The translations under genes and the position numbers were made by a program. Positions 20,383 through 44,695 of a stretch of DNA of 64,000 nt are shown here, piece by piece. Positions within the stretch are counted from its first letter, which is position 1, and every line of letters starts with the position of its first letter. Source of the stretch: Actinomycetota bacterium (GTDB lineage: Bacteria > Actinomycetota > Geothermincolia > Geothermincolales > RBG-13-55-18); the NCBI GenBank assembly GCA_003598015.1, contig QZKE01000033.1, forward strand, positions 124,616 through 188,615, read 5' to 3'. A model generated the notes under the pieces. The model made no database searches, was not told the origin of the DNA, and saw only the letters and a program-made list of their open reading frames with translations.

Positions 20383-20392
20383 CGCCGCGGCC

Positions 20393-21163
20393 TCACTTGG
20401 CCACCCAACCACAATCCACGAGGAGGTCAGCGCCGGTGATGAAGGAGGCCTTCTCACTGGCGAGGAAATAGACCGCTTCCGCTATCTCCAGGGGAGAGGC
20501 CCAGCGCTTGAAGGCCTGCTCCGCCTCTCTCATCTTCTTGACCTCCTCGTAAGGCAGGCCGGTCCTGCGGGATTCGATATCTATGTCCCCACGCAGCATG
20601 GGGGTATCCACCGACCCCGGGCTCAACGAGTTCACCCGGATCCCGTGGGGCGCCAGTTCCCAGGCGATGGCGCGGGTGAAGGAGATGACCGCGCCCTTGC
20701 TGGCCCCGTACACGGAGTGGTCCACCTGGCCCACGTGGCCGGACACCGATCCCATGTTAACGATGGCCCCCGCACGCTGCCCCTTCATCACCGGGACGAC
20801 GTGCTTGCAGAAGAGAAAGATCCCGCCCAGGTTGATGTTCACCACCCGCCTGAACTCGTCCACGCCGATTTCCTCTACCGGCTTCACCAGCACTACGCCG
20901 GCGTTGTTCACCAGTACGTCGATGCGCCCGAAACGGTCCGCCACGTCGTGCACGAAGGAAGCTACGTCTTTCTCCTCGGCCACGTCCCCCCGGGCGCTGT
21001 GGCACGCCGCCCCCTCCGCTTCAGCGGCGGCGGCTGTCTCCTGCACGGCTTCGGCTATGTCCATGACGGCCACGTCGTATCCGTTGCGGGCGAAAAGCTC
21101 CGCCGCGGCCCTCCCGATGCCGCTCGCGGCGCCCGTGACCATGGCCAGGCTTCTTCCCTCCAT
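20393..21163 (-). CDS. SDR family NAD(P)-dependent oxidoreductase
   Basis: TGAASGIGRA Rossmann motif, NNAG, catalytic YGASK. Confidence 0.85.
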   Translation of the reverse strand: MEGRSLAMVTGAASGIGRAAAELFARNGYDVAVMDIAEAVQETAAAAEAEGAACHSARGDVAEEKDVASFVHDVADRFGRIDVLVNNAGVVLVKPVEEIGVDEFRRVVNINLGGIFLFCKHVVPVMKGQRAGAIVNMGSVSGHVGQVDHSVYGASKGAVISFTRAIAWELAPHGIRVNSLSPGSVDTPMLRGDIDIESRRTGLPYEEVKKMREAEQAFKRWASPLEIAEAVYFLASEKASFITGADLLVDCGWVAK

Positions 21164-21166
21164 CTT

Positions 21167-21973
21167 TCAAGGCCTCCTTCCTATTCCCAGCCTGCCGCGG
21201 GCTTCTTGCGGCGTGGCTACCGGCCTGCCCAGCGCCTCGGCGATGCGCCGCGCCTCCTCCACCAGCACGTGGGTGGGGGCTACCTCTCCCTCGCGGTTGA
21301 AGGGGTAGTCCTCCGTCCCCACGCGGATGTGGTCTCCCTCCACCATGGCGGCCGCCAGGAGTTTCATCTGGCTCTCGCCCATCACGCTGACCGTGCACAC
21401 GCATCCCTCCGGCATCTGCCTCCGCCGGTAGAGGTATTCATCGATGGTGGGAGGGCTCCAGGTCCCCCCCGGCCAGCCGAAGAAGAGGGTGGTGACGTAA
21501 GGTTCAGCGAGCAACCCCTCGCGCACGAGGAAGAGGAGGTTCCAGATGGAACCGCTGTGCCATACCTCGAACTCCGGCACCACGCCGGAGTCAGCGCAGG
21601 CCCGGGCATAGGAGATCAGTTCCTCCTTGGTGTGGAGGACGTTGAAATCCTCCGCGGCGAAGGCCTCGTCGTGATGGCCCAGGATCACGGATATCATGTC
21701 GCCCTTATGCGCGAAGACGTCCGCGCGCTCCTCCAGGGTGGTGCTGGACATCCCGCACTGGATGATGATATCGCACCTTTGCCGTATCGCCGGAATAACC
21801 TCGTCCCAGCGTCCTTCGGCGTGGGTGTGGCAGACCGCCGCCCCCTTTTCCAGGCAGAGCGCGGCCTCGTCCGCGATGGCCTGCGCGGTCCTGGGGTACT
21901 CCACCCCGGGATGCATCCAGCAGGTGTTGGCGGTCGCGGTGATGATTAGCGGCGTCTCAAATACCCTGCTCAT
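21167..21973 (-). CDS. 3-keto-5-aminohexanoate cleavage enzyme family (BKACE/DUF849) protein
   Basis: 268 aa; BKACE-like TIM-barrel pattern incl. HTHAEG, IIIQCGMSSTT, PEFEVWHSGS. Confidence 0.7.
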   Translation of the reverse strand: MSRVFETPLIITATANTCWMHPGVEYPRTAQAIADEAALCLEKGAAVCHTHAEGRWDEVIPAIRQRCDIIIQCGMSSTTLEERADVFAHKGDMISVILGHHDEAFAAEDFNVLHTKEELISYARACADSGVVPEFEVWHSGSIWNLLFLVREGLLAEPYVTTLFFGWPGGTWSPPTIDEYLYRRRQMPEGCVCTVSVMGESQMKLLAAAMVEGDHIRVGTEDYPFNREGEVAPTHVLVEEARRIAEALGRPVATPQEARGRLGIGRRP

Positions 21974-22003
21974 TTTCTGCTCCTCTCGCCGGCTCGCCCC
22001 GGC

Positions 22004-24280
22004 TCATGCGCCGTCCCGGCCCGTAATGCGTTTGTCCAGGGTGGTGATCCTGCGGCAACCATCGCCGGTGACGACGTAACAATCCTCCACTCCGATCAGG
22101 GTGTCGCGGAAGGGCTCCCAGGCCTCTATCTCGAAGACCATGTTCTCCTTGAAGACCCCTTCGGCGACCCCCATGGTCCCGAAGAGGTGCTGCTCCTCGC
22201 ACTCCAGGCCGATGCTGTGGCCCACCACGAAGGTGAGCCCTTCCGGCCTCAGGGACTTGTAGTAGGCGATCGCCTCCTCGTTGAGTTCCCGCATGTTTAC
22301 CCCCGGCTTCACGTGCTGCTCGTAGAACTCCTGCAGCTGTATAAGGCTGCCCACCAGCTCCTCCGCCTCGGGAGGGACTGGGCCCAGCACCAGGTGGCGG
22401 TTCACATCGGAGACGTAGCCCTTGCATACGGCGCCGAAATCGAAGCGCAGGATATCACCTTGCTCGGCCACCGTGCCCAGACCCGGGGCCTCGGGATCGG
22501 AACCCCCTATGCTCAAGGTGAGGTGATCCCATCCGTCCGCGCCCTCCGCGAGCATGGTCTGCTTGCCCAGTTTGAGGAAGTCGTTGTCGCTTATCCCCGC
22601 GGCGGCGGCCTCCATGCAGGCCGTGATGGCCTTCTCGGTAACGGCGGTGGCCTTCTCGATGAGGGTTATCTCCTCCTCGCTCTTGACCACCCGCAGGTCC
22701 AGGAAGGCCTGGTCCGCGGTGACCACCTCGAGCTCGGGGTCCTTCGAGGACAGGTGTTCGACGAGCCACTTGGGAGCGCTGGATTCGACTCCCACCCGCC
22801 TGCCCCTGAAACCCCATCTCTTGAGCTTCGACCATACCGCCCTCTTCGCTTCCCTCTGCCCGATGATGCCTTTGTACTCGTTGGCCCAGCAGAACTCGTC
22901 CACGCTCCGGAAGAGGGCCCAGTGGAAGAGGGCGAGATGTCCGTCCCGCCGCATGAGCACCACGTTGGGATACATGTTCCTGAGGGCGAAGAGGATGGGG
23001 TTGGGGGCGGTGGGCAGGGTGGGCAAACCGCTCAGGTAGTAGACGTTGATGGGGGAAGTGGCCACGAGAAGATCGAGGTCCTGCCCGTTCATGATCTCCT
23101 CGGCCCGTTCCCTGTCGAATCCGATGGGCTTCATGCGTTTCACCTCCGGCAATCCGGGGCGGGCCGGGATATGTTCTCCCAGGTCTTGGTAGAGGCTCCC
23201 GGTGCCCTCCTTCTCCGCCAGCTCCACGAGCTCTCCGCGCGTGGCCGCCCTTCCCGTGCCGGCCGAAAGGTAGCCCATGAGCACGCAGGCCACCGCGCTC
23301 TTCGCATCGTCGGGAGAGAACTCCGGCTCCCGGTCCTCGAGGATGCAGCCGGCGAAATGCTCGTCCTCGTGCCTCACCGATATGGTGTAGTAATGGGGGA
23401 AAGGGGCGTGCTCCAGTTCCGGCTCGTACCACTCACGGCGATGGTCTCCCATGGCCTTGTGGTAGGAGTAGATGCGCACCGGCCTCTCCCAGGCGTGGTT
23501 CTCGAGTATGGTTCCCTGCGTGCCGTATATCTCCAGGCTGTTGAAGGGGGTGGTCTGCTGGGTGAAGCTCACCACGACCTCCCCGATGGTCCCCCTGGAG
23601 AAGCGTATCATGGACAGGGCGTTGTCCTCGCCCTTCTCGGGATGGCTCACGGCCTGCCTGGAGAGCATGGCGGTTACTTCCTCCACGCGGTCCTGCAGGA
23701 TCCACTCCAGGGTGGCGAACTTATGGGCTCCCATGTCCATGAAACTCCCGCCCCCCGCCTTGTTGATATCTCCCTTCCAGGAATCGGGCTGGCTGAGGCC
23801 GGCGATCTCGTTCACCCCCTCGTAGGCCCTGACCAGGAGCACCTCGCCGATGAGCCCTTCCCGGATCGCGTCGTGTATGTAGCGATGGGCGGGGAGAAAG
23901 CGGTGGTTCTCCGCCACCATGAATCTCACCCCGGCCTTGCGCGTCGCCTCGATCATCGCGTCACAACCCTCCAGGGTGGTGGCCATGGGCTTCTCGCACA
24001 GCACGTGCTTGCCCGCCGCCGCGCACAAGCTCACCGTCTCCTCGTGATAGGCGTGGGGGACCGTCACCAGGACGGCATGTATATCGCTCCCCAGAAACCC
24101 CTCCAGGTCCTTGTATACGGTTACCGGGCCGGCGCGGTAGCGCCTGCTCATCTTCAAGGCGTGCCGGTAGTTGACGTCGTACATGGCCGTGAACCTGATC
24201 ATTGGTGATGCCGCGGTGGCGTTTCCGTGGAAGCTCCACGCCCCTCCCAGACCTATAACGCCGAAGTCTACCGCATTCAT
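22004..24280 (-). CDS. Fusion protein: N-terminal Gfo/Idh/MocA-family NAD(P) oxidoreductase + C-terminal creatinase/Xaa-Pro aminopeptidase (M24) domain
   Basis: Single uninterrupted 758-761 aa frame; N-term FGVIGLGGAWSF...EKPMA (Gfo/Idh/MocA); C-term HLVLGPV...HSIGLECEE (M24 pita-bread metal-ligand region). Confidence 0.7.
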   Translation of the reverse strand: MNAVDFGVIGLGGAWSFHGNATAASPMIRFTAMYDVNYRHALKMSRRYRAGPVTVYKDLEGFLGSDIHAVLVTVPHAYHEETVSLCAAAGKHVLCEKPMATTLEGCDAMIEATRKAGVRFMVAENHRFLPAHRYIHDAIREGLIGEVLLVRAYEGVNEIAGLSQPDSWKGDINKAGGGSFMDMGAHKFATLEWILQDRVEEVTAMLSRQAVSHPEKGEDNALSMIRFSRGTIGEVVVSFTQQTTPFNSLEIYGTQGTILENHAWERPVRIYSYHKAMGDHRREWYEPELEHAPFPHYYTISVRHEDEHFAGCILEDREPEFSPDDAKSAVACVLMGYLSAGTGRAATRGELVELAEKEGTGSLYQDLGEHIPARPGLPEVKRMKPIGFDRERAEEIMNGQDLDLLVATSPINVYYLSGLPTLPTAPNPILFALRNMYPNVVLMRRDGHLALFHWALFRSVDEFCWANEYKGIIGQREAKRAVWSKLKRWGFRGRRVGVESSAPKWLVEHLSSKDPELEVVTADQAFLDLRVVKSEEEITLIEKATAVTEKAITACMEAAAAGISDNDFLKLGKQTMLAEGADGWDHLTLSIGGSDPEAPGLGTVAEQGDILRFDFGAVCKGYVSDVNRHLVLGPVPPEAEELVGSLIQLQEFYEQHVKPGVNMRELNEEAIAYYKSLRPEGLTFVVGHSIGLECEEQHLFGTMGVAEGVFKENMVFEIEAWEPFRDTLIGVEDCYVVTGDGCRRITTLDKRITGRDGA

Positions 24281-24322
24281 GATTCTCATCCTCTTTCCCG
24301 TTCTCTCCCGCGTTTCAGCCCA

Positions 24323-24757
24323 TCAGTCCATCTCGTCCTGCACCAGCTCGAGCAGGTCCTTGAAACGGATGGCGTCGCTGATGATCCCGTCCACCTCGAG
24401 GTCGCCGCACATGTAAGCCGCGGTGGGATCCACGCTGCCGCTGAAGACGCCCAGGGCCACCTCTTCATCCATGTTCAATATTATGTCCGGATTGGGAAGG
24501 GAACCCGATCCCGCCTCGAACCTGCATTCGCGCACGGACAACCAGCAGAGCGGTTTGCCCTCCACGTTGATCTGGAAACTGCGGTCGAAGCCCTCCACCT
24601 CGTCCTGGACGTCTTCGGCGTTGTTGGCGATCTGGGTGAAAACGGTGAAGTAGTCCTTGATGTCAGCCATGCAGAGGGTGTTTTCCTCCATCTTCTGCAG
24701 CACCTGGTCCCGCAAGACCTCGTCTATCTGCTGCCCGCTTTCCGCTTTCCAATCCAT
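24323..24757 (-). CDS. SCP2 domain-containing protein
   Basis: ATG 24757 with AGGAGG 6-7 nt upstream; C-terminal SCP2 signature (AAYMCGDLEVDGIISDAIRFKDLL). Confidence 0.6.
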   Translation of the reverse strand: MDWKAESGQQIDEVLRDQVLQKMEENTLCMADIKDYFTVFTQIANNAEDVQDEVEGFDRSFQINVEGKPLCWLSVRECRFEAGSGSLPNPDIILNMDEEVALGVFSGSVDPTAAYMCGDLEVDGIISDAIRFKDLLELVQDEMD

Positions 24758-24994
24758 CTGCGCCCTCCTTTTCCGGCACGGCTCTTGCCCCGCGACAGCT
24801 GAATCGTCAAAGTGGTAAAATGGTAAGACCATTAAAATATAACGCGCTTCTCCTTCGCCTGTCAACCGCACCATGCGGCCGGATAGCATCTTGCGGATCA
24901 GCCGGGTGAGGCAAGTTTGGAGCTTCTCCGAGAAGTGTAGTATTTCGCGGAGTCTTCAGGGTCTACCCCCTGCGCTACTCGCGGAAGAACCTCT

Positions 24995-25759
24995 TCAGAG
25001 GGTAGACACGAATTCCGTAATGGCCCGTGAGACCTCTTGCGGTTTTTCCATGGGCGACAGGTGGCCGGCGTCGGCTATCTCGACCAGGGTGGCGTTTTCG
25101 ATGCGGTTGGCCATGAACGTGCCGTATTTCACCGGGGTCATCCTGTCGTCCGACGCGGTGAGGACGAGGACGGGGGCTCCGATCTCGTCCAACCTCTCCA
25201 TGACGTCGAAGGCGTCGCAGGCCCGAAAGTCGCCCAGGGTCACCTCGGGAGGGCACGTGGCCGTGGCCTCCATGAGAGGAGCGATACAGGAGGGGTCGGT
25301 CTTCTCGGAGATGCTGAACTTGGGCGCTCCTTCCAGGTAGGCGCGGTAATCGTTCTCGATGGTCTCGAAGATAAGCGGCATCACCCTCAGCCTCGCCCCC
25401 GAGTTCACTACGATTCCGGCCTTGTACCTTTGCGGCATGTCCAGCAACAGCTGCAGGACAATAGCGCCGCCGATGGAGAGGCCGCAGACCACGGGTCGGG
25501 TTACACCCAGGGAAGTAATGAAGCCGTCGACTATCGCGGTGTAATCCGCGATGCAGTTCTTCCCCTCGCCCCCGCTTGCGCCGTGGCCGGGCAGATCGAG
25601 GGCGATGGTGTTCATGTCGCCTGCGAGCGCTTCCACCTGCGCGCGCCACAACACGCTCGCTCCGCCGGATCCATGGATGAACACGATGGTGGGCAGGTCC
25701 GGTTCGAGCGGCCACCGGCCCGCTATGAAACCTATACCTCCGGTCTTTGATTCATACAT
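24995..25759 (-). CDS. Alpha/beta hydrolase
   Basis: IVFIHGSGG..., GLSIGG nucleophile elbow, C-terminal DAGH. Confidence 0.8.
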   Translation of the reverse strand: MYESKTGGIGFIAGRWPLEPDLPTIVFIHGSGGASVLWRAQVEALAGDMNTIALDLPGHGASGGEGKNCIADYTAIVDGFITSLGVTRPVVCGLSIGGAIVLQLLLDMPQRYKAGIVVNSGARLRVMPLIFETIENDYRAYLEGAPKFSISEKTDPSCIAPLMEATATCPPEVTLGDFRACDAFDVMERLDEIGAPVLVLTASDDRMTPVKYGTFMANRIENATLVEIADAGHLSPMEKPQEVSRAITEFVSTL

Positions 25760-25804
25760 CTCACGGGCAGCATATCACATCCTGGCGCGATTGAAGATGG
25801 CGGT

Positions 25805-27313
25805 TTATTTCAGGTAGATGGATTGCTCCACGAGGATGGGGGCGTCCGAGAGCACGCATGTGGCGACGTCCGGGGCGCTTCCGGCGATGTCGTTCAACCG
25901 CAGCGATGCCTTGCCCCGGGCGGGGAGCGCGACGGAGTATTCCGAGGAGCGCGCTCCGGCCGTCATGGCGATGATAACTGGATGGGATTCCACCTCCCCG
26001 GGGTTGCATACGTAGAGCCACGTCTCCGCGCCCCCGGCGGTGCAGCCTCCGGCGGTATACCATTCCGTGGCCGCCCAGCATGATCCCACCCTGTTTTTCT
26101 CCAGCGACCAAGCGCCCCCGCGCCGGTAATACGTCGCTTCCTCCGCCAGGATGGGGATATCGGAATCGATGCACAAGAACAGGTCCCGGCCCATTCCGAA
26201 GAGCTGATTCATACGCAGTGTCCTGGTGCTCCGTGGCGGGACGCATATCCTGTGTTCCTCCTCCGCCCCTGCTCCCCCCGGGGATCGCACGAACGCGATG
26301 GCCGTGCTCTTGTCGTAGTTGGTCAGACGGAGCCACGTCTCGAAGCTCTCCGCCGTGGACGCATGCGCGAAGAACCATTGCTCCGAGGGTTGATACGAGC
26401 GGGTCGCGGAGGCGCCCCCCTGGTAATGCCTCCGGGATATGTCCTCGTAGACCAGGCGCGACGCCTCCGCATGCACGCTGAAGCCTGGAGCGCCTCCGGA
26501 CATTACGCAAAACACGTAGGTCAGGCCGTCCAGGAAGACTACCGCCGCATCGTTGTAGTAGCCCTGGTAATTGCCCGTCTTGTTGCCCACCGCCACGCTC
26601 TCCGGAAGTCCTGCGGGGATGCCGCTGTTCAGGGTACTTTCCTCGAGATAGGTGACGACCTCCCGTCCCAGGGGATCCGTCTCCGCGAACTGCAGCACGC
26701 GCACGAGCAGGATGCCCATCTCCCGCGCGGTGGTCGAGTTGATGTTGTATGTCCCGGCTACCGGGCAGCCCAGGGAGGCGGCGTAGTCGCGGAACTTGCG
26801 GTAGCCGTAGACGCGCTTGAGCATGCGTGCGGCCACGTTGTCGCTGTTGACGATGGCGCAGCGGCACAGCTCCCGCGTGGTGAAGCCCGTCCCCAGGGGG
26901 GCGGTCTGGATCACCCCCTCCTCGCCCTCCATGTCGCCGGCCTGGTAGGTGATGATGCGGTTGAGGTCGAAGGTTCCCCTGGCGGCTTCCTCGTAGATGT
27001 ACATCACCAGGAACAGCTTGTAGCAGCTGGCGGCGTAGAAGACCTCGTCTTCCCTGTATCCCGCCTGTTCTCCGGTCTCGAGGATGTTGAGGTACATGCC
27101 GTAGCTGCCGTAATAACCGTCGGCCAGCTCCTCCAGTTGCGCCGCGATAGGGGGCGCGGCGGTTTCCACGCTCTCCTCACCAGGGGTGGCGTATTGTCCT
27201 CCCCGCAGGCCGCAGGCACGAGCGCGAGCATGCGAGGCGGCCGGGAAGGGCAACATAATAAGGAGGAAGCAGATTGCGACGATCAGCCGCGGGCTATCGC
27301 GACGGGCATACAT
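25805..27313 (-). CDS. Secreted class A beta-lactamase-like serine hydrolase with C-terminal repeat-domain (shared with 44696..45837 proteins)
   Basis: Signal peptide; SCYK (SxxK), SDN (NSDNVAA), KTG (NKTGN) motifs; C-terminal roughly 190 aa resemble the W.FAEG...ERPMYFNY repeat unit. Confidence 0.65.
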   Translation of the reverse strand: MYARRDSPRLIVAICFLLIMLPFPAASHARARACGLRGGQYATPGEESVETAAPPIAAQLEELADGYYGSYGMYLNILETGEQAGYREDEVFYAASCYKLFLVMYIYEEAARGTFDLNRIITYQAGDMEGEEGVIQTAPLGTGFTTRELCRCAIVNSDNVAARMLKRVYGYRKFRDYAASLGCPVAGTYNINSTTAREMGILLVRVLQFAETDPLGREVVTYLEESTLNSGIPAGLPESVAVGNKTGNYQGYYNDAAVVFLDGLTYVFCVMSGGAPGFSVHAEASRLVYEDISRRHYQGGASATRSYQPSEQWFFAHASTAESFETWLRLTNYDKSTAIAFVRSPGGAGAEEEHRICVPPRSTRTLRMNQLFGMGRDLFLCIDSDIPILAEEATYYRRGGAWSLEKNRVGSCWAATEWYTAGGCTAGGAETWLYVCNPGEVESHPVIIAMTAGARSSEYSVALPARGKASLRLNDIAGSAPDVATCVLSDAPILVEQSIYLK

Positions 27314-27768
27314 GACAGACCTCGTATCAAATAGCACCCTTGCCAGTGAGAATGATACAGGGAAAACGGCCCAGGCTTCAACGGCAAATCAATCGACTCG
27401 CGCCACCCATTTGCCCAGGGCTTTTCCCATGCTCCGTATGCCCCCACCCGAGCGAGGCGAGGAGGTCGGCTGCCAGGGCCTCCCAATATCATACAACACC
27501 ATGCATGGATATCAGGACAGGCAGCTTTACTCTGTCCTTCTCGATCCCTCCGACGCGGTCGCATTGCCGCAATTGCTTTGCTTTACAGAATTTGCCTATA
27601 CATTATGCTGATGACAAGGGCTATCATCACAAACACTCCGTATAAGCAGGCTCGTGTATTGCGGCGCCCTGGAGCGGTCGGATATGCGGATACGGCTGGG
27701 AGGCAAGCTGCGAACGAGCTGCCGGCCGCATAACTGACTGTACCGCTCAAGAAAGAGGGGGTTAGAAG

Positions 27769-28953
27769 ATGGAATCCATGCACTACGACCTTGTGGTGGT
27801 GGGGGGAGGCCCGGCAGGAGCGGCTGCGGCCAGGGCGGCAGTCGAAGGCGGGATGAGCACCTTACTCATCGAGAAGAAGAAGATGCCCCGGCCCAAGCAG
27901 TGTTCGGGCATGATCATGCCGGCTGCCCGGCGCTACTTGCAGGAATATTTCGGGCCCCTGCCGGAGAAGGTACTGGCGAGTCCGCCCTTCAAGGGCTCGA
28001 GCTGGCATCTCAAGGGAGACAGGACCATCAACGTACATCTGGACGGAGATAACGTATGGCGGGACAGGTTCGACCAGTGGTTGTGCGAGGAATCCGGGGC
28101 GGAAATACGTGATGGGACGAGGCTCGTGGATTTCGCGGCATGGAAGGACCATGTTGAAATCATCTGCCTCCGCAATGGCGAGGAAGTGAGGCTGCGTTCC
28201 TCGGCCATGGTAGCGGCGGACGGGGTCTATTCCGGGGTCGTAAAGAAAATAGATCCAACCTTCAATGATGGCCTGGACTGCTTCTATTACCGGCAGGACT
28301 ATTACCGCTGCGATGTGGAACTGGAGCCGGGTTATTTCCATGTTTTCCTGGATCCAAGGTTCGGGCTCTACCCCGCCGCCTATGTCAAGGACGACATTCT
28401 GGTGGTGGACAGTTGCGTACGTGCGGGAGAGAAGATCGCGCCGGCCCATGATCGCTATTGCTCATCTTTGAGCGAGAAGCACGGTTTCAAGTGTCACGAG
28501 CTGGTCATGACCTTGGGCTGCAGGGAGACCGGTACACCTGGATTCAACCGCTTCTGCCTGGGCACGGACCGCGTCCTTGTGGCGGGAGAGGCGGCCGGCT
28601 TCATAAACGGTTACGGCGAGGGCATCTCGTCGGCGTTAGCCACGGGTTATCTGGCGGGGAAAGCGGTGGTGGAATCCGGGAGCTCCTCTCCCGGGCCCGT
28701 GTATCGAGAAAGCGTTGCGCCTGAGAGGGAGCGTACCATGAAAGAATGGCACCTGCCGGACGTCATATCGGGACGCTCCAATCCGGATGTAACCCGGGCC
28801 ATTATGGCCTTGCCTCCCAAGGACATACTGCGGCTGATGCCGAAGATATTCGCCTTCGGCATCAAGCATAAAGCTTTCCCCGGGTTTCACAGGGGCAACT
28901 TGGAGCTCTCCCTGAGAAGGCTGCTGCACGGCGATTTTAACTTCCGAGGTTGA
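27769..28953 (+). CDS. FAD-dependent oxidoreductase (geranylgeranyl-reductase-like family)
   Basis: N-terminal DLVVVGGGPAGAAAARAA Rossmann FAD motif; GDAAG-like VAGEAAGF near C-terminus. Confidence 0.75.
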   Translation: MESMHYDLVVVGGGPAGAAAARAAVEGGMSTLLIEKKKMPRPKQCSGMIMPAARRYLQEYFGPLPEKVLASPPFKGSSWHLKGDRTINVHLDGDNVWRDRFDQWLCEESGAEIRDGTRLVDFAAWKDHVEIICLRNGEEVRLRSSAMVAADGVYSGVVKKIDPTFNDGLDCFYYRQDYYRCDVELEPGYFHVFLDPRFGLYPAAYVKDDILVVDSCVRAGEKIAPAHDRYCSSLSEKHGFKCHELVMTLGCRETGTPGFNRFCLGTDRVLVAGEAAGFINGYGEGISSALATGYLAGKAVVESGSSSPGPVYRESVAPERERTMKEWHLPDVISGRSNPDVTRAIMALPPKDILRLMPKIFAFGIKHKAFPGFHRGNLELSLRRLLHGDFNFRG

Positions 28954-29103
28954 TTGATAAGCATTTCAGGTTCTTCTCCGAAAAGCTTGGGTGAACAGTA
29001 TGGTGGAATCAGGGTCAGGCCAGGCCTAACGGCAGCTACTCACACTTCTCAGGGAAGAACTACATCATACCCTGGGGAGTCGTGCGAGAAATGGAGGATG
29101 ATC

Positions 29104-31170
29104 ATGATGGGAGGAAACTGGGGCAGGATTCTCGAGGTCGATCTCACGCAAAGGTCCGTGCGGGACCTGGAGCCGGATGAGCAACTGTATCGCGATTACC
29201 TGGGGGGCAGCGGCCTGGCCGCCAGGCTGTTCTTCGACCGCCGTGGTTGGGAGGCTGATCCCTTATCCCCCGAGAACCCGCTGCTGATCATGCTGGGGCC
29301 GCTCTCGGGGTTGAACCTTCCGGGGGTGTCCAGGCTGGAGATCTGCGCCCGCTCCCCCCTCACCGGCATCTGGGGGGAATCCTGCATGGGAGGCCACTTC
29401 GCCCCTCAATTGAAGCGCACCGGCTACGACGGTATCATCGTGACCGGGGCATCGGACAAGCCGGTCTACCTCTGGGTGACGGACGAGGGGGCCGAGATCC
29501 GCGACGCCTCCCACCTCTGGGGCAGGGACACCTACGAGACGGAGGATATCCTCAAGACGGAGGCGGGAGACAAGCGAGCCCAGGTGATGTGCATCGGCCT
29601 GGCCGGGGAGAACCTGGTGAAGTACGCCAACGTGATGAACGACAGGGGCTCCACAGCCGGGCGCTGCGGCATGGGGGCGGTGATGGGCTCCAAGAAGCTC
29701 AAGGCGGTGGTGGCCCGGGGCGGCAGGAAACCTCCCATCGCCGACGAGGATGGGTATAAGAAAATCCGCGAGCGGCTGGGCGAGGTATTGAAGTTCAGCA
29801 TGGTGGCCGAGTCCTTCGGCGCCTACGGGACCAACGTGGGCATGGAGTTCGGCATGGCCATGGGAGACGTACCCACCAAGAACTGGCGGGAGGCCTACTG
29901 GGAGGCCGGCCGGGAGAAGCTGGGCGGAGTGGCGGTGGCGGAGACCATCCTTACCAGGACCCACTCCTGCTACGGATGTCCCGTGGGATGCAAACGTATC
30001 GTAGAGGTGGATTCCGGCCCCTACGCCCTGGAGGAAGGTCCGGGAAGCGAGTACGAGACAGCCGCGGCCCTGGGCACCTTGCAGCGCCTGGACAGCGTGG
30101 AGGCCAATCACAAGGCCAACGAGATGTGCAACCGCTACGGCATGGACACCATCTCCGCCGGGGGGAGCATCGCCTACGCAATCGAGGCCTTCGAGGAAGG
30201 CTTGATCGTGGAGGCCGACACCGGCGGCATCAAGCTGGGCTGGAACCAGCCCGAGACCCTGCTCCTGCTCATCGACAAGATCGCCCAGAGGGAGGGTTTC
30301 GGGGATGAGCTGGCCGAGGGGGTACGGTCCATGTCCGGGAAATACGGCGGGGAGGAATTCGCCATCCACGTCAAGGGGCTGGAATGTCCCATGCACGATC
30401 CCCGGGCGATGTGGGGCCTGGCCCTTACCTATGCCACGTCGGTGAGGGGAGCGTGCCACGTCTCCGACGCGAATCTTTTCGCTGATTATGGCATAACCGA
30501 CCACAGGGACCTGGGGGCGAAGAGGTCCTGGCCGTACAGGGCCAAGGGCAAGGCGGCCCAGACGGTGGCATCGCAGGAGAAAGGATCCGTGGCCAACTCG
30601 GCGATCATCTGCCTGATCGCCTGGGCTTCGGAAGGCGGCGCCATGCGGGATATGATGGAGATGCTCAACCCCGTCACCGGCTTCGCCTACGATGTGGATG
30701 AACTGGCTCGGGTGGGGGACCGCATATGGTTTATCAAGCGCGCTATCGGCAACCTCTGCGGGGCTACACGCCAGGATGACCGGCTGCCCGCGCGCATCAT
30801 AGAGCCGCATGTTGAGGGGACCACCTCGTATCTCACCATGGCGGCATTCCCGACCATGATGTCCATGCTGCCCATGGGCAAGCTGCGGGTGGATAAGCTG
30901 AGGGATGTCCTGGCCAACTTCCAGATGAAGGTCCTGGTGCCCAACATGAACAAGCTGCTCAGATCCCAGCGCAATCTTCCCGGTTTCAGGGGCCACATGA
31001 AAAGGCTGGAGGCGGGAGAGGCGGAGGAGATAAAGCGCAGGACAGTCCCCTTCGACGATATGCTCCAGGAGTATTATCGCTTGCGTGATATAGACGGCCG
31101 GGGGCGCCCCAGCCGCAAGGTCCTCGAGAGCCTGGGGATGGGGGAGGTGGCCAAGGAGCTGCACGGCTGA
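29104..31170 (+). CDS. Aldehyde:ferredoxin oxidoreductase (tungsten-containing AOR family)
   Basis: AOR N-terminal domain (GNWGRILEVDL...GGSGLAARL) and AOR C-terminal domains with Cys ligands; GGAGG 6 nt before ATG 29104. Confidence 0.85.
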   Translation: MMGGNWGRILEVDLTQRSVRDLEPDEQLYRDYLGGSGLAARLFFDRRGWEADPLSPENPLLIMLGPLSGLNLPGVSRLEICARSPLTGIWGESCMGGHFAPQLKRTGYDGIIVTGASDKPVYLWVTDEGAEIRDASHLWGRDTYETEDILKTEAGDKRAQVMCIGLAGENLVKYANVMNDRGSTAGRCGMGAVMGSKKLKAVVARGGRKPPIADEDGYKKIRERLGEVLKFSMVAESFGAYGTNVGMEFGMAMGDVPTKNWREAYWEAGREKLGGVAVAETILTRTHSCYGCPVGCKRIVEVDSGPYALEEGPGSEYETAAALGTLQRLDSVEANHKANEMCNRYGMDTISAGGSIAYAIEAFEEGLIVEADTGGIKLGWNQPETLLLLIDKIAQREGFGDELAEGVRSMSGKYGGEEFAIHVKGLECPMHDPRAMWGLALTYATSVRGACHVSDANLFADYGITDHRDLGAKRSWPYRAKGKAAQTVASQEKGSVANSAIICLIAWASEGGAMRDMMEMLNPVTGFAYDVDELARVGDRIWFIKRAIGNLCGATRQDDRLPARIIEPHVEGTTSYLTMAAFPTMMSMLPMGKLRVDKLRDVLANFQMKVLVPNMNKLLRSQRNLPGFRGHMKRLEAGEAEEIKRRTVPFDDMLQEYYRLRDIDGRGRPSRKVLESLGMGEVAKELHG

Positions 31171-31285
31171 AGCGCCCGTCAGCTGCAAGCCTTGAGGGGC
31201 TCGGAACCCTGACTCCTGGTCACGAGGGCATGAGGTAAGGCGCCCGCCTGTTTCAACCGCCGGCTAAACCGGGTGCCCTGGCGCA

Positions 31286-32593
31286 TCAACCCAAAGCGTC
31301 CGCGAGAAAACTCAGCATTTTCGCCCAGGAGTCCGAGCTGGCGCGCGCGTTCGCCCCGGGGCTGCCGCCGAAGTCCAGGGCCATGCCGGAGAAGACGCGG
31401 GTGTAGCCCACCGTCGCCGGCTGATAGGGCATGAAGACGACGTGGCCTGCGCCGTCGTAGTCCAGGTGCTCGCAGGGGTAGGGGTGGTTGTTCTTCTCCA
31501 GGCGCCCGAGGGCGATGCGTGACAGCTCGGAGGACGGCCATACCCTGTCCCCCTTGCCGGACACCAGCAGCACCGGCCCCTTTATCTTCTCCACCTCTAT
31601 GGTGGCCTTATCCACCGACCCCTCGTCCTTCATACCCTCGATATAGGTGGACAGGGTGGAGAGGGGCTTTCCTGACATGCCGCTCCAGATGGCCTTCGCC
31701 GTGAACGCGAAGCTGTCCTTGCGCTTCGCGAAGGGCACCGCCTCCCCCCGCCAGGTCCAGGGCGTATCCGCTTCCGCTTCCCGGGGGTTCTTGTGCAGCC
31801 CCTCGAAGACCACTCCCCCTCCGGAGATGGAGACCACCGCGCTCACCTGCTCCAGTTTGGAGGCGACCAGGAGGGCGCCCTCGCCGCCCCGCGACACCCC
31901 GATGAGGGCGACGCCGTCCTCTCTCACTTCCAGCCTCGCGGACAGCCAGGCGATGCATTTCTCGAAGTATTCCACGGGGATTCTTATGTAGTCTTCCGGC
32001 TGTCCAGCGCCGCCGAAGTAGAGCAGGGAGAGCACGGCGTAGCCCCGCGAGGCCAGGAGGGACCCCCTGTCCTCCATGATGCGGTTGGAGGTGCCGTGCA
32101 TGACGATGATTCCGGGACGCGGACCGGCGGCAACGGGCTTGAAGTAGGTGCCCGTGATGCCGCCCTCGGAGACGGGGATGCGCTCCACTCCCGGCGCCAG
32201 GTACAGCCTCTCGATCTCCCTGGTGGCTGCGGCAGCCCCATCCACTTGCGCGGTGAAGGTCATCTTCTTGGGTTCGGTGTTCTCCTTCACGTATATGCCC
32301 GCGCTCTTGTCCAGCGGGGACATGGACCAGAAGAGGCCCATGGGATCGGCATCCTTGTAGGTTCCCGCGGCGGGCTTGTGCCGGGACAGGTCCGCCATGC
32401 CGTCCTCATCGCAGGTAAAGACGGCATGGGATTCCCACCTCTTCCCGGCGTCGTCATCGAGCGACGCGCCGAGGTTCACCCGCTGGTGAGGCTCGAAGCC
32501 GGCAAGCCTTATCTCCAGCGCTTCGTCGGCCAGCGAACTCTCGGGCGCTATCTCTATGCGCGGTCCTTGGGGAGCCCCTTCATCCCTTGCCAT
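31286..32593 (-). CDS. Acyl-CoA thioesterase / BAAT-family hydrolase (N-terminal thioesterase-like beta domain + C-terminal alpha/beta hydrolase)
   Basis: GVSRGG nucleophile elbow, C-terminal YDGAGH; ATG 32593 with GGGAGGTG RBS. Confidence 0.6.
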   Translation of the reverse strand: MARDEGAPQGPRIEIAPESSLADEALEIRLAGFEPHQRVNLGASLDDDAGKRWESHAVFTCDEDGMADLSRHKPAAGTYKDADPMGLFWSMSPLDKSAGIYVKENTEPKKMTFTAQVDGAAAATREIERLYLAPGVERIPVSEGGITGTYFKPVAAGPRPGIIVMHGTSNRIMEDRGSLLASRGYAVLSLLYFGGAGQPEDYIRIPVEYFEKCIAWLSARLEVREDGVALIGVSRGGEGALLVASKLEQVSAVVSISGGGVVFEGLHKNPREAEADTPWTWRGEAVPFAKRKDSFAFTAKAIWSGMSGKPLSTLSTYIEGMKDEGSVDKATIEVEKIKGPVLLVSGKGDRVWPSSELSRIALGRLEKNNHPYPCEHLDYDGAGHVVFMPYQPATVGYTRVFSGMALDFGGSPGANARASSDSWAKMLSFLADALG

Positions 32594-32935
32594 TTTGGCA
32601 CCTCCCGGTGGTAATGCACGGTTCCGCCCGTGCCGAGAGACGTTGAAAACGCACTTGACCATAGCATAACGCATGTTCGCATCCGAGTGGTGGAGAATGG
32701 CCGGCATTTTATGGTGCTGCATTACCTTCCAATCCCCTCTCGTCCCCCCGTGGTGTTTGCGTCCCGCATTCCTGCCACTCCTTCCCGTTCAAGCCGGGAA
32801 GGGTCCGGAAAATACCATCCACCTCACCGCGGGCGACCTTGGTTTGCATGCCGGCGATATACTGGCAGGGGCTCCGATGCAATAATAGAGGCATGCCGTT
32901 ACCATTGCAGGCTCTCAGGTGAGGAGGGAGGGGGC

Positions 32936-35599
32936 ATGGGCAGGTCATTCCTGATGGCGTTCGACCTCGGCGGCGGCTCCGGCAGGTGCATACTGGTCGA
33001 CCTGGAAACGGGAGCCGCCTTTTCAACCAAGAGGGACTGGTCGTATCCCGTAGCGCCCGGTACCGCGGGCCTGGGTTACGACCTGGATCTCGAGGACATG
33101 TGGCGCAAGCTGGGAGAAGCCTGCCGCCAGGTGGTGGAGGAAGCGGGAGCCGGGCCCGGGGAAATACTGGGCGTAGCCGCCACCAGCATGCGCAACACCA
33201 CGGTATTGCTGGACGGCGAAGACAGGGTGCTCTTCGCCACCCCCAACCAGGACGGGCGTGCCCTGGGCAACGCGCTGATGCTGGCGGGCGAGCGCGGCAT
33301 GGAGTTCTATCGGGCGGGCGGCCACTGGCCGGGCCCCATTTTCACCGGCCCGAGGCTGCTGTGGATGCAGAACAACGCGCCGGAACTCCTCGCACGGGCC
33401 ACGCGCGTCACCTGCCTCTCCGACTGGATGGGGTTCCGCCTGAGCGGGGGTCTCTATTCCGAGAGGTCGCAGGCGGGCGAGACCATCCTCTTCGACCACC
33501 GCAAACGCGACTGGGCCCGGGACCTCATCGCGTCCATCGGAGTGGATCCGGGGATGTTCCCCGAGGTGGTGGGTGCGGGGACCCTTATCGGAAGCCTCAC
33601 GCGCGAGGCGGCGGAGCACCTGGGCCTGGCGCCCGGCATCCCGGTTGCGGCGGGCGGCGCCGACACCCAGTGCGGCCTGCTGGGGGCGGGATGCGTGCGG
33701 GACGGGGATCTCGGCGTCATCGCCGGAACCTCCATGTCCGTGCAGCAGGTCTGCGGGGACTACGTGCTGGACGGGGAGGGCCGGCTGTGGAGCGGGCAGC
33801 ACGTGGTGCCCGGACTGTACGTGCTGGAGAGCAACGGCCTGCTCTCGGGCACGGTCCTGGAATGGTTCTCGCGCATCCTCCATCCGGGCAGCTACGACCC
33901 GCTCGCGGTCCTCTTCGCCGCGGCGGCACGTTCCGAGCCCGGCGCGGCGGGGGTGTATTCGACCTTCGGGGCCCATGTAGGGGACGCCCGCAGCATCAGC
34001 GTCATCCTCGGCAGCCTCACCATGTCCCACATGGTGACCCCCGACACCCTCGCCTGCCGCGATCACATCGGCCGGGCCCTGCTGGAGGGCATCGCCTATT
34101 CCGCCTGGGCCAACGCCGGACAGGTCATCGCGGTGAGCGGCATGGACCCGGACTTCCTTGACGCGGGAGCGGGCATGTCCAGGAGCGCACTGTGGACCCA
34201 GATAGTCAGCGACGTGGCGGGGAAGACGGTAAGGGTGCATGCGGTGGCGGAGAACTCGGCGCTGGGCGCGGCCATCTGCGCCGGCGTGGGGGCCGGCGTC
34301 TTCCCCGACCTGGTGGAGGGCGCCAGCCGCCTGGTGAGCGTGGAGAGGGAACAGCGGCCGGGGGAGCATGCCCAGAAATACGGGGAGCTGTACGCGGGCT
34401 GGAGGGAGGCCATGGACAAAGGCTCCGAGTGTGAAAGCTGCATGGCGAACCAGATGGCCGTGGCCATGCTCTCCCGCGCGCCGGCGGCCTGCGAGGCACC
34501 ACCCGCCTTCCGGCCCCGCATACTGGTCACCGCGAGCATGGACGATGCGGCCCTGGGCGAGCTGCGCGGCATGGGCGAAGTGGACTTCCGCCCCTGGCGC
34601 GAGGAGATGAGCGTCCTGGGGGGCGGGCGGGAGCTGGCGCAGGCGCTGGCGGGCTTCGACGTCTTCATCACCGAGATGGACGTGGTGGACTTCGAGGCCC
34701 TGCGCGATACGCCGGGCCTGAAGATGATCATCTGCTGCCGCGTCAACGCCGTCAACGTCGACCTGGAGGCGGCCACCGCCTTCGGCGTACCCGTGGCCAA
34801 CACCCCCGGCAGGAACTCAGGCGCGGTGGCGGACCTCGCCGTGGGCTTCATGATCATGCTGGCGCGCAAGCTGCCCGGGGCGGCCACGTTCCTCAAGCAA
34901 AGCGGCGGCGAGGCCGGCGACCTCCTGCGCATGGCGCAGGCCTACGAGGAATACCAGGGCAGCGAGCTCTGGCGCAAGACGGTAGGCCTGGTGGGCCTGG
35001 GCAACGTGGGAACGCGGGTCGCCGCCAGGCTGTGCCCCTTCGGCGCGAAGGTCATCTTCTACGATCCCGGAATAGACGCCGCGGAAGGGGTACTGGCGGG
35101 GGCCGAGAAGGTGTCCTTCGAGGAGTTGCTGAGGCGCAGCGACTTCGTGAGCGTGCATGCCCCGGCCACCGCGGCCAGCGAAAAGCTCATGGACCGTGAG
35201 GCCTTCTCGCGCATGAAGGAGGGGGCGTTCTTCATCAACACGGCGCGGGCCTCCCTCGTCGATGACGAGGCCCTGGCGGAGGCGCTGGAGAGCGGGAAGC
35301 TCGCCGGGGCCGCACTGGACGTTTTCACGGTGGAGCCCCCCGCGGCGGATAACCGGTTGGCGGGGAGGGAAGACGTCATCGCCACCCCGCATATAGGGGG
35401 CAACACGCGGGAGATCGGCGCCCACCAGGGGGATATCGCCGCGGACCAGCTGCGCAAACTGCTGCGCGGAGCGTCACCCGACCACATCCTCAACCCGGGG
35501 GTACTGGAGGGGTTCGCCTGGGAGGGGCCCCGCCGCGAACCACCTCCCGAGGTGCTCGAGTCACTCGCCCGCAACCCGAAGCCGTCCATCACCTCTTAG
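32936..35599 (+). CDS. Fusion protein: FGGY-family carbohydrate kinase (N-terminal about 500 aa) + D-isomer-specific 2-hydroxyacid dehydrogenase (C-terminal about 330 aa)
   Basis: Single frame without stop; FGGY motifs (MAFDLGGGSGRC, AGGADTQCG, GTSM); 2-HADH NAD-binding GLVGLGNVGTRVA and catalytic HIGGNT; ATG 32936 with GAGGAGGGAGGGGG RBS. Confidence 0.7.
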   Translation: MGRSFLMAFDLGGGSGRCILVDLETGAAFSTKRDWSYPVAPGTAGLGYDLDLEDMWRKLGEACRQVVEEAGAGPGEILGVAATSMRNTTVLLDGEDRVLFATPNQDGRALGNALMLAGERGMEFYRAGGHWPGPIFTGPRLLWMQNNAPELLARATRVTCLSDWMGFRLSGGLYSERSQAGETILFDHRKRDWARDLIASIGVDPGMFPEVVGAGTLIGSLTREAAEHLGLAPGIPVAAGGADTQCGLLGAGCVRDGDLGVIAGTSMSVQQVCGDYVLDGEGRLWSGQHVVPGLYVLESNGLLSGTVLEWFSRILHPGSYDPLAVLFAAAARSEPGAAGVYSTFGAHVGDARSISVILGSLTMSHMVTPDTLACRDHIGRALLEGIAYSAWANAGQVIAVSGMDPDFLDAGAGMSRSALWTQIVSDVAGKTVRVHAVAENSALGAAICAGVGAGVFPDLVEGASRLVSVEREQRPGEHAQKYGELYAGWREAMDKGSECESCMANQMAVAMLSRAPAACEAPPAFRPRILVTASMDDAALGELRGMGEVDFRPWREEMSVLGGGRELAQALAGFDVFITEMDVVDFEALRDTPGLKMIICCRVNAVNVDLEAATAFGVPVANTPGRNSGAVADLAVGFMIMLARKLPGAATFLKQSGGEAGDLLRMAQAYEEYQGSELWRKTVGLVGLGNVGTRVAARLCPFGAKVIFYDPGIDAAEGVLAGAEKVSFEELLRRSDFVSVHAPATAASEKLMDREAFSRMKEGAFFINTARASLVDDEALAEALESGKLAGAALDVFTVEPPAADNRLAGREDVIATPHIGGNTREIGAHQGDIAADQLRKLLRGASPDHILNPGVLEGFAWEGPRREPPPEVLESLARNPKPSITS

Positions 35600-39895: not shown

Positions 39896-40208
39896 ACCCT
39901 TTCCACCACCTCAAATCGGCCTGTTCTGTAAACATTCTACAATGCCAAGAAGACCTTGACACTATAAAAACATTACATGGGGCTAAACAGCACAGCCCAT
40001 GCCGGTCGTGAGGGTGCTGTCGTGATCCGTAATGTGTGGGACTACCCAGATATGATACCCCTACCCGAGGTGCTATCATGGTTGTAGTGCTGTGGTTCGG
40101 GGCCAAAGGGTTCCAACTATTTAAGGGTTACGCGCAGGGCAGTTCCCTTGCATGCGTGACCACCATCAAGAGGGCCTGCACCACTGGATCTATCCAGGTG
40201 AGGTGCAC

Positions 40209-43519: not shown

Positions 43520-43591
43520 GAATAGATCTACTTCGCGATTCCATAACATGATGTGCGATTACACCGAAACCGCCCATTTGAAAATCTCACA

Positions 43592-43616
43592 TGCCTCGAA
43601 AGGCACCGGGCTTTGC
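43592..43616. repeat. Right copy of direct repeat TGCCTCGAAAGGC-N3-GGGCTTTGC
   Basis: See 39004-39040. Confidence 0.45.
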
Positions 43617-43672
43617 TGCTGGTCGCGCGAGTCCGCAACCAACCCTATCCGCTGGCATTAGAGCGATCTTGT

Positions 43673-44555: not shown

Positions 44556-44578
44556 GTTTGTCCCAATCCTCTTCTCAT

Positions 44579-44613: not shown

Positions 44614-44695
44614 GACCTTTCTTGCGATCTTGGTTCTCCAGTCTATATAAAATCTATTCCCATTCGGGCCACGCCTGTATGTTCCATGTCAACCT

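Follow-up and report, generated by a model that had tools for sequence, protein, structure and literature searches.

ASRT-homology repeats shared by a predicted secreted PBP-A-like peptidase and a gene remnant in an uncultured actinomycetote

Modules known to hold exported proteins on the walls of monoderm bacteria include SLH, CWB2, LysM, SH3b and the choline-binding repeats. The ASRT-homology (ASRAH) superfamily was described by De Souza, Iyer and Aravind in 2009, with secreted multi-copy forms that are fused to a cell-wall amidase (PMC2739507). Its hallmarks are a Trp that opens strand 1 and a near-invariant Asn that closes strand 2; the secreted versions are dyads or tetrads, and ASRT (the Anabaena sensory rhodopsin transducer) and TM1070 are tetramers (PMC2739507). 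Sugar binding by the superfamily was predicted in 2009 from context and from ethanediol in a crystal, the predicted cleft for the sugar or other small molecule being lined by strand 2 (PMC2739507). Family 2 of the same work comprises secreted Chloroflexi N-acetylmuramoyl-L-alanine amidases with four ASRAH domains (PMC2739507). In our literature search the name ASRAH was found only in this paper. The second described system of importance here is PBP-A, a DD-carboxy/endopeptidase that has no omega-loop glutamate (PMC11189452).

The DNA analysed (the window) is a stretch of 64,000 nucleotides from contig QZKE01000033.1 of an actinomycetote of the class Geothermincolia; coordinates below are positions in the window and (-) denotes its reverse strand. 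A first-pass annotation of the sequence had proposed that a beta-lactamase-like protein shares a repeat with a locus 18 kb away (locus 2), and this proposal was borne out. Comparison by blastp of the 510-aa ORF at 25805..27337(-) with the frame-repaired locus-2 protein yielded E 6e-19 and 25% identity over aa 305-510, and an HMM built from the three complete units of locus 2 matched the reading frame 25808..27388 with E 3.5e-19 and two domains. The runner-up among the 873 six-frame segments of the window had E 0.98, and no repeat copies besides those of the two loci were detected in the window by this search. Judged by these scores, the similarity of the repeats at the two loci is real and far above chance. 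The units homologous to locus 2, two of ~105 aa each, occupy the last ~205 aa of the ORF. The unit phase given in the annotation (W.FAEG ... ERPMYFNY..W.GGHDV) agrees with the eight strands per unit of the structure model, and its unit length of ~120 aa has to be reduced, the units measuring 105-111 aa.

The repeat had also been put forward as a novel domain that could not be assigned to any family, a candidate that is now corrected to DUF5719/ASRT-like because HMM searches map it to the known Pfam domains DUF5719 (PF18986) and ASRT (PF07100), an outcome that the annotation itself had named as contradicting novelty. The frame-repaired locus-2 protein matched DUF5719 with 54.7 bits against a cut-off of 26.2; the beta-lactamase-like protein scored 24.6 bits, slightly under this curated cut-off, and precomputed annotation assigns PF18986 to its closest homologues. 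The ASRT model matched locus 2 with E 3.6e-5 and 24.1 bits, slightly under the cut-off of 25, and relatives with E-values down to 1e-20. A profile of 52 units matched TM1070 (1NC7) with E 1.2e-6 and the Anabaena transducer (2II7) with E 1.5e-5. In the alignment of these units the Asn closing strand 2 is invariant (52/52), and strand 1 starts with Trp, or with Phe/Tyr, before [YF]FAEG. Structure prediction was performed on a dyad of locus-2 units, and the resulting AlphaFold model (pLDDT 96.8, pTM 0.91) has eight strands per unit. When the model was searched with Foldseek, 1NC7 was the top match (E 3.5e-9, TMt 0.81, rmsd 1.6-2.0), and the ASRT entries 2II7/8/9 were found at probability 1.00. 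These results show that the shared repeat is an ASRAH beta-sandwich, covered in Pfam by DUF5719 and ASRT, and that the beta-lactamase-like protein and locus 2 are new members of a described family. A new domain family without known relatives might have been suspected from the failure to assign the repeat by eye and from the fact that DUF5719 is mentioned in no paper of the searchable literature; it has become scarcely credible in view of the Pfam matches, the profile matches to 1NC7 and 2II7, the same two structures leading the Foldseek results with TMt about 0.8, the published description of the superfamily (PMC2739507) and the NCBI name 'DUF5719 family protein' of close relatives.

The repeats resemble ASRT (2II7) and TM1070 (1NC7), both PF07100, in the eight-stranded beta-sandwich, which superposes with TM 0.7-0.8, in the strand-1 Trp and strand-2 Asn, and in their occurrence as dyads or tetrads. 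Further common traits are an acidic residue and Gly after strand 1 (FAEG in the repeats, FPDG in ASRT/TM1070) and a Cys in strand 2 (WLCLxN and SLCIMN, respectively). In contrast to the free-standing, cytoplasmic single-domain tetramers of that group, the units described here are covalent repeats in exported proteins, with a signature of their own (FAEG, SRxT, AERPMYF, GGH) and an identity of about 17-24%. DUF5719 (PF18986) is probably, to judge from the description in the 2009 paper, the actinobacterial surface lipoprotein of family 3. The locus-2 units map to positions ~40-131 of the DUF5719 model, and flanking N- and C-terminal extensions were not recognised here. The conserved lipobox cysteine of the family-3 lipoproteins was not found after the signal peptide of the peptidase, the Cys of ...ARACGL varying among the aligned homologues, and the genes around the two loci include none of the families of the family-3 neighbourhood (WhiB, glycosyltransferase, inactive zincin). 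With family 2 the window's protein has in common the exported multi-copy units and the fusion to a peptidoglycan hydrolase, and relatives found here, such as P0069, combine Amidase_3 with four units just as family 2 does; compared by the paper's description, the window's protein differs from family 2 in being a PBP-A-like peptidase with two diverged units from uncultured Actinomycetota.

On the evidence of the ORF list, Pfam and homologues, 25805..27337(-) encodes a putative secreted serine peptidase that is PBP-A-like and bears an ASRAH dyad at its C-terminus. The ORF of 510 aa, as listed, has a GTG start; the gene probably starts at the ATG at 27313, which is preceded at 8 nt by GAGG. Pfam matches of the 510-aa protein were Beta-lactamase2 (E 1.2e-40) and DUF5719 (E 1.6e-5). 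About 40 full-length homologues of the same architecture were found in Actinomycetota MAGs; the combination of a PBP-A-like domain with ASRAH units is present in database annotation and absent from the searchable literature. Inspection of the sequence led to the prediction of a signal peptide, MYARRDSPRLIVAICFLLIMLPFPAASHA (27227..27313(-); aa 9-37 in the numbering of the 510-aa ORF). Every aligned homologue has a hydrophobic segment at its N-terminus, and the structure model has a helix at residues 8-19 followed by a low-confidence linker. The gene is flanked by genes for an alpha/beta hydrolase, an FAD oxidoreductase and an aldehyde:ferredoxin oxidoreductase, and no cell-wall genes were found in this neighbourhood. 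Synteny is limited to close relatives, which share the downstream alpha/beta hydrolase, and is uninformative on function.

The catalytic domain (aa 80-279, 26501..27100(-)), as delimited by the Pfam match, the motifs and Foldseek, has the fold of class A beta-lactamases, and its motifs S104-C-Y-K107, S165-D-N167 and K253-T-G255 are kept without variation by 29 homologues. When aligned with class A enzymes, the domain shows an omega loop that is 13 residues shorter (13 gap columns). No equivalent of Glu166/Asn170 was found in this loop, where GTYNINSTT contains no Glu and the gap spans ...RWEPELNEALPGDPRD.... The top 11 Foldseek matches of the domain were PBP-A entries (2J7V/2J9O/2J8Y/2JBF) with E 1.8e-17 and TMt up to 0.84, and the peptidase sequence matched 2J7V with E 2.1e-11. 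Taking into account that SxxK, SDN and KTG are kept, that Glu166 is missing and that the nearest structure is PBP-A, the catalytic domain is probably a wall peptidase of the PBP-A type rather than a beta-lactamase. What the first-pass annotation had called class-A-beta-lactamase-like is so in its fold, but is more likely a PBP-A-type wall peptidase than a resistance enzyme. A true class A beta-lactamase conferring antibiotic resistance, with the C-terminal part as an accessory extension, would agree with the Beta-lactamase2 match, with the three motifs and with the JGI label 'beta-lactamase class A'; it is made very improbable by the score of 79 bits with the NCBIfam model bla_class_A, far under the cut-off of 200, by the shortened omega loop devoid of Glu166/Asn170, and by the PBP-A entries being the nearest structures. 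PBP-A of Thermosynechococcus elongatus (2J7V), like the window's domain, has the class A fold and SxxK/SDN/KTG, and it is the best structural match. It differs in sequence (about 22% identity) and in that the published work (PMC11189452) expressed and studied it as a soluble domain; no ASRAH module belongs to the chains of 265-275 aa that were solved.

The two units of the dyad were located by domain matches of the unit HMM, by the structure model and by motifs. Unit 1 (aa 318-421, 26075..26386(-)) is a diverged sub-type with the motifs WFFAHAST, WLRLTN, PPRSTRTL and ILAEEATYY, and was modelled as an all-beta domain of eight strands with a pLDDT of about 90. Unit 2 (aa 423-510, 25808..26071(-); motifs WYTAGGCT, WLYVCNPG and ILVEQSIYLK) stops after strand 7, the equivalent of the ERPMYF strand, and therefore has no eighth strand. 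The full-length model has a pTM of 0.53, and the arrangement of its domains relative to each other is uncertain. The canonical invariants are replaced in the dyad: the Glu of FAEG, the Arg of SRxT and the Arg of AERP correspond to FAHA/TAGG, ST/GK and AEE/VEQ. Comparison of the motifs showed that the two diverged units keep the structural Trp, the Asn and the hydrophobic pattern. If the E/R/R residues form the binding site, their loss in the dyad means that the canonical ligand may not bind.

Secreted ASRAH repeats make up a very large family (9,830 clusters at 50% identity), whose ligand is so far only predicted. Four units were found in 115/157 relatives, two in 22/157 and three in 15/157, and four is also the usual number in the 150 best cluster representatives, some of which have 7-9; these copy numbers agree with the published dyad/tetrad rule. 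As a rule the units form a tetrad at the C-terminus of secreted proteins of various kinds, and the relatives bear signal peptides. In a Pfam partner census run on subsets of the relatives, the peptidoglycan enzymes SpoIID, YkuD, Amidase_3 and M23 were present in 7/78, 3/78, 2/78 and 1/78, respectively, and further partners were TIG, Big, phosphatases, subtilase and propellers. FIT, Slr4, Agarase_CBM, DUF7356 and others also gave matches; these are low-scoring, lie inside ASRAH units and were regarded as cross-matches rather than as extra domains. In the canonical units the charged residues E, R and E-R are strictly invariant over thousands of clusters. These observations fit the suggestion of a binding module that is secreted or exposed on the cell surface, given the signal peptide predicted for the peptidase, the exported relatives and a fold for which sugar binding has been predicted.

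The interpretation that we favour, with moderate confidence, is an exported PBP-A-type enzyme with a wall-tethering ASRAH dyad, locus 2 being the decayed remnant of a tetrad. The exported enzyme would consist of a signal peptide, the catalytic domain and two ASRAH units packed as a dyad. The catalytic domain keeps the acylation machinery (SxxK, SDN, KTG) and has no counterpart of the omega-loop glutamate that deacylates the penicilloyl-enzyme, as in PBP-A; we infer a DD-peptidase activity by which the catalytic domain would trim or cleave D-Ala-D-Ala or 4-3 peptide links of the cell's own peptidoglycan. The dyad would retain the enzyme on the envelope through its affinity for a glycan of the wall, which might be peptidoglycan strands or else a secondary polymer, a role comparable to that of SLH, CWB2, LysM and SH3b in other monoderms. 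The likeness to such modules is one of analogy only: they, too, are tandem repeats of set copy number that mostly sit at one end of many unrelated exported enzymes and surface proteins, autolysins included, whereas their folds are unrelated to ASRAH, for which wall binding is a prediction. In the clade of the window the dyad no longer has the canonical polar signature residues, and it may have switched or lost its ligand.

The dyads and tetrads could instead be oligomerisation or scaffold modules that mimic the ASRT/TM1070 homotetramer, either in a single chain or through dimerisation of dyads, in which case they would set the quaternary state or the spacing of the enzyme and bind no wall component. 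ASRT and TM1070 are indeed tetrameric and the secreted forms dyads or tetrads, four is the dominant copy number with few proteins at 7-9, the modelled dyad was predicted as a single rigid body (pTM 0.91), and it is the conserved polar residues that the window's dyad has dropped, the structural Trp, Asn and hydrophobic pattern being those that it has kept. We nevertheless consider a pure scaffold unlikely, since the invariant E, R and E-R of the canonical units would, from their conservation, suit a binding site better than a packing surface, and since a module that occurs on dozens of unrelated exported enzymes is distributed as expected for one that serves retention. Wall retention also has to be weighed against binding of external polysaccharides, that is, a carbohydrate-binding module that serves nutrient acquisition and does not address the own wall. 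A beta-sandwich with a predicted sugar pocket would be suited to this function, and an occasional rhamnosidase C-terminal domain, pectate-lyase-like partners and the weak Agarase_CBM matches point in the same direction; but glycoside hydrolases are rare among the partners, the recurrent ones being peptidoglycan-active (SpoIID, YkuD, Amidase_3, M23, PBP-A-like) or phosphatases and proteases, and the Agarase_CBM matches sit within the units themselves, which leaves this function less probable still than that of a scaffold.

The fixed copy number and the many unrelated exported partners, several of them peptidoglycan-active, make retention on the wall a testable hypothesis for these uncultured Actinomycetota. 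If the repeats are anchors, dozens of unrelated exoenzymes, autolysins and adhesin-like proteins would be retained on a specific wall glycopolymer. A wider proposal, which we make tentatively and with some doubt, is that the ASRAH tetrad or dyad could be a major, hitherto unrecognised envelope anchor of deep-branching Actinomycetota (Geothermincolia and relatives) and of Chloroflexi, and that the PBP-A-like fusions with diverged dyads could represent a ligand-switched sub-lineage.

Locus 2 (44696..45846(-)), taken in the first-pass annotation for one intact gene of a tandem-repeat protein, is a 5'-truncated, frameshifted remnant of a gene. It comprises the overlapping ORFs 45091..45837 and 44696..45226, offset by a 1-nt frameshift, and contains three complete units and the C-terminal half of a fourth. 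This half unit is the first in the array and forms the 5' edge of the remnant (45667..45846(-); three-frame translation, tblastn), so that the remnant starts mid-unit, with stop codons directly upstream. It is followed by a complete canonical unit (FYFAEG ... VERPMYFNYNGVWTGGHDV, 45334..45666(-)), recognised by translation and the unit HMM, and by the frameshift site (45325..45337(-)), where the DNA and the frame change in tblastn indicate that the run ccccggg (45332-45337), or the sequence that follows it, lacks one base. The next complete canonical unit (IFYFAEGYTGQGEFDEYLCLANP ... AERPMYFNYHGAWTGGHCV, 45017..45334(-); unit HMM) is the first half of the modelled dyad, and the last in the array (WFFAEGYADSDFEEWLCLYNP ... 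AERPMYFDYDGSWSGGHDVVGFQP, 44699..45016(-); unit HMM and model) is also canonical and complete, and ends at the stop codon at 44696-44698. Three-frame translation of the locus revealed no signal peptide or N-terminal domain. The tblastn alignment of the closest homologue of locus 2, P0083, begins at residue 133 of P0083, and residues 1-132 had no counterpart anywhere in the window. The remnant would derive from a gene for a surface protein that once ended in the usual ASRAH tetrad and whose 5' part was lost.

P0083, the closest intact relative of the remnant, lies on an unrelated, apparently fragmented contig and is uninformative on the 5' loss. A stretch upstream of the remnant, at about 45,900-46,010, looked tRNA-like by eye and was considered as a tRNA or integration-site remnant; it was rejected, as a search of the window with ARAGORN returned no tRNA and Rfam gave nothing at gathering or at E<=1. 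The frameshift may be an assembly error, the run being homopolymer-rich. The identical broken ORF (100% identical) is also present in the NCBI MAG contig JAGVAL010000166.1.

The first-pass annotation proposed a repeat of about 120 aa common to the C-terminus of the beta-lactamase-like protein (ORF 25805..27337, minus strand, 510 aa) and to locus 2 (44696..45846, minus strand), 18 kb away. The similarity between the two loci is real: residues 305-510 of the 510-aa protein aligned in blastp with two consecutive units of joined locus 2 (E 6e-19, 25% identity), and an HMM trained on only the three complete units of locus 2 matched the 25808..27388 frame as two domains (E 3.5e-19). The repeat unit is shorter than proposed, 105-111 aa; the beta-lactamase-like protein carries two units, residues 318-421 and 423-510. 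The tandem repeat described at 44696..45837 does contain three complete units but is not a single ORF: two ORFs overlap in different frames (45091..45837 and 44696..45226), and joining them at the run ccccggg (45332-45337) yields a 380-aa sequence that has, besides these three, the C-terminal half of one more unit. When the unit HMM was searched against the 873 six-frame segments of the window, no further copy better than E 0.98 was detected among the other segments.

The repeat, which the first-pass annotation could not assign to a known family, belongs to one; an HMM match to an established domain was the outcome that this annotation had itself named as refuting its reading. In Pfam the locus-2 repeats match DUF5719 (PF18986; E 1.1e-14, 54.7 bits, cut-off 26.2) and are borderline for ASRT (PF07100; 24.1 bits, cut-off 25); the beta-lactamase-like protein, at 24.6 bits with DUF5719, falls just below the cut-off of 26.2, and close relatives are labeled 'DUF5719 family protein' by NCBI. 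With a profile of 52 diverse units, only three solved proteins were significant: TM1070 was the best (1NC7, E 1.2e-6), and the Anabaena sensory rhodopsin transducer was represented by two sequences (2IIA, E 1.3e-5; 2II7, E 1.5e-5). The aligned regions span from the W-Y-F-A-E-G strand to the strand preceding ERPMYF. Structure prediction led to the same known fold: the two final units of locus 2, modeled with AlphaFold2 (pLDDT 96.8, pTM 0.91, eight strands per unit), had 1NC7 as its best PDB match in Foldseek (E 3.5e-9, TM 0.81 on target, rmsd 1.6-2.0 Å), followed by ASRT entries with probability 1.00. This superfamily was defined as the ASRAH domain, an ASRT-homology beta-sandwich, by De Souza, Iyer and Aravind 2009 (PMC2739507). 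Its hallmarks are a Trp opening strand 1 and a nearly invariant Asn closing strand 2, which lines a predicted sugar-binding cleft; secreted versions always form dyads or tetrads (two or four units). Every published sequence hallmark was found in the repeats of this window, and across the 52-unit alignment the strand-2 Asn is kept in 52/52 units and [YF]FAEG is preceded by Trp (or Phe/Tyr). We are nearly certain that the shared repeat is an ASRAH domain.

The catalytic part of the 510-aa protein (residues 80-279) matches Pfam Beta-lactamase2 with E 1.2e-40, and 29 homologues all share S104-x-x-K107, S165-D-N167 and K253-T-G255. Against a cut-off of 200, the NCBIfam class A model gives 79 bits. 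In the alignment to class A enzymes the omega loop has 13 gap columns, and where beta-lactamases carry RWEPELNEALPGDPRDTT the window protein has GTYNINSTT, so that, in contrast to class A beta-lactamases, no equivalent of Glu166/Asn170 is left. For the full-length model (pLDDT 83; about 90 in the catalytic domain and both C-terminal beta domains), the eleven best Foldseek matches were all to the Thermosynechococcus elongatus PBP-A (2J7V and its derivatives; E 1.8e-17, TM up to 0.84), ranked above every true beta-lactamase. On these results the product is best read as a putative exported peptidoglycan peptidase of the PBP-A type. Translation probably starts at the ATG at 27313, preceded by GAGG, which yields the predicted signal peptide MYARRDSPRLIVAICFLLIMLPFPAASHA. 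The Cys following the signal peptide is variable among homologues, thus a lipoprotein was rejected.

About 40 proteins from MAGs of uncultured Actinomycetota keep the PBP-A-like + ASRAH architecture, with identity as low as 40% in Candidatus Geothermincola secundus. More distant members have two to four canonical units (WYFAEGTT, SRxS, AERPMYF). The clade of the window protein (about 19 sequences) always has two, in which the otherwise invariant polar residues are exchanged: FAEG is replaced by FAHA and TAGG, SR by ST and GK, and AERPMYF by AEEA.YY and VEQ..Y. Retained are the Trp, the Tyr and the L-x-L-x-N strand. The replacements are in turn conserved across the clade, and the model folds both units with confidence. 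This looks like changed function, not decay; the dyad may bind a different ligand or be mainly a structural or dimerizing element.

When 1.84 billion cluster representatives were searched with a profile, 9,830 proteins matched at E<=1e-3, of which 3,807 reach E<=1e-30. Among 157 collected relatives 115 have four units, 22 two and 15 three; four is also commonest among the best 150 of the 9,830, a few of which have seven to nine. The array is mostly C-terminal (median 0 aa after and 120 aa before the repeats), and signal peptides were found at the N-terminus of the full-length relatives inspected. Partner domains in one sample (78 proteins) were TIG (16), SpoIID (7), YkuD (3), PD40 (3), Vgb-lyase-type propeller (3), Amidase_3 (2), M23 (1), multicopper oxidase, PHB esterase and others; in another (53 proteins) TIG (9), Big_7 (4), Big_13 (4), metallophosphatase (4), purple acid phosphatase N-terminal domain (3), NHL, PD40, subtilase, PGA_cap and others. 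Domain positions were verified for the SpoIID, Amidase_3, YkuD and M23 fusions. De Souza et al. (PMC2739507) described one family in Chloroflexi fused to N-acetylmuramoyl-L-alanine amidase and another among actinobacterial lipoproteins; we found no later literature on secreted ASRAH domains. Many relatives (P0024-P0035, P0061) have the strand-8 motif, GGH.x.G, ahead of their first unit as well and often lack it in their last, which then stops right after ERPMYF; strand 8 may therefore pack on the unit that comes next, in a strand exchange of neighbors.

A terminal repeat that recurs in fixed copy number on many exported proteins unrelated to each other, with several peptidoglycan enzymes among them, has the pattern of a cell-envelope retention module, a putative role assigned by analogy. 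For the window protein we consider it reasonably probable that an exported PBP-A-like enzyme with predicted DD-peptidase activity would be held at the wall by its dyad binding wall glycan. That the dyad or tetrad is an oligomerization scaffold imitating the ASRT/TM1070 tetramer we regard as unlikely; still less likely, despite the predicted sugar-binding cleft, is a carbohydrate-binding module for external polysaccharides. A true beta-lactamase would account for the Pfam match, yet with the altered omega loop it is very improbable, and in view of the DUF5719 and 1NC7/2II7 matches a new domain is hardly credible. The gene neighborhood (alpha/beta hydrolase, FAD oxidoreductase, aldehyde:ferredoxin oxidoreductase), syntenic in close relatives only, is uninformative on mechanism. 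The domain, its fold, the copy-number rule and the wall-hydrolase fusion are all published or in Pfam already; new at most are one more architecture, a PBP-A-like peptidase with a diverged dyad, and a wider partner census, which sharpens the retention-module hypothesis.

Judged from its sequence, locus 2 is what is left of a tetrad-bearing gene, truncated at the 5' end and frameshifted by 1 nt; it has no signal peptide. Its closest relative, P0083 (68% identity), has a TIG-like N-terminus and four units; in tblastn its residues 133-304 map to 45840..45325 and 301-446 to 45337..44900 in a different frame. No part of the window matches its residues 1-132, and the sequence just upstream of 45846 contains stop codons. 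An ORF broken in the same way is annotated on NCBI MAG contig JAGVAL010000166.1, which is 100% identical to the window over 8.4 kb; the two assemblies may share reads, so the frameshift may be an assembly error at the homopolymer. The 5' break holds independently of it. P0083 (ENA ERZ1700618 contig) lies among short gene calls that overlap on one strand (159, 240 Metallophos, 421, 142 and 465 aa) and resemble a single large gene interrupted by frameshift errors, thus P0083 may itself be incomplete. The segments 19805..33256 and 41091..49482 are 100% identical to JGI 3300038436 contig Ga0394679_071855 and NCBI JAGVAL010000166.1 (GCA_020060335.1), which places the window in the same uncultured Actinomycetota population.

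Divergent from the remnant and 380 bp upstream of it is a SoFic-like Fic/DOC gene (46227..47273, plus strand; PADLOC SoFic anti-phage defense model, E 8e-35); GC falls to about 0.55 in this stretch. At 40152..43519 (plus strand) a TIR gene (Pfam TIR_2, E 2.6e-14; weak PADLOC matches to PycC and SAVED_TIR) precedes two overlapping ORFs, one AAA_16-like and one TPR, whose frames differ; the group may be a STAND-type defense gene set or a single gene split by frameshift. These flanking defense-type genes suggest that locus 2 is in a variable region. Two further fusions were seen: a 761-aa protein (22004..24289, minus strand) combining, unusually, an N-terminal GFO/IDH/MocA oxidoreductase with C-terminal Creatinase_N and Peptidase_M24, and a 989-aa protein (32630..35599, plus strand) made up of an FGGY carbohydrate kinase fused with a D-isomer-specific 2-hydroxyacid dehydrogenase.
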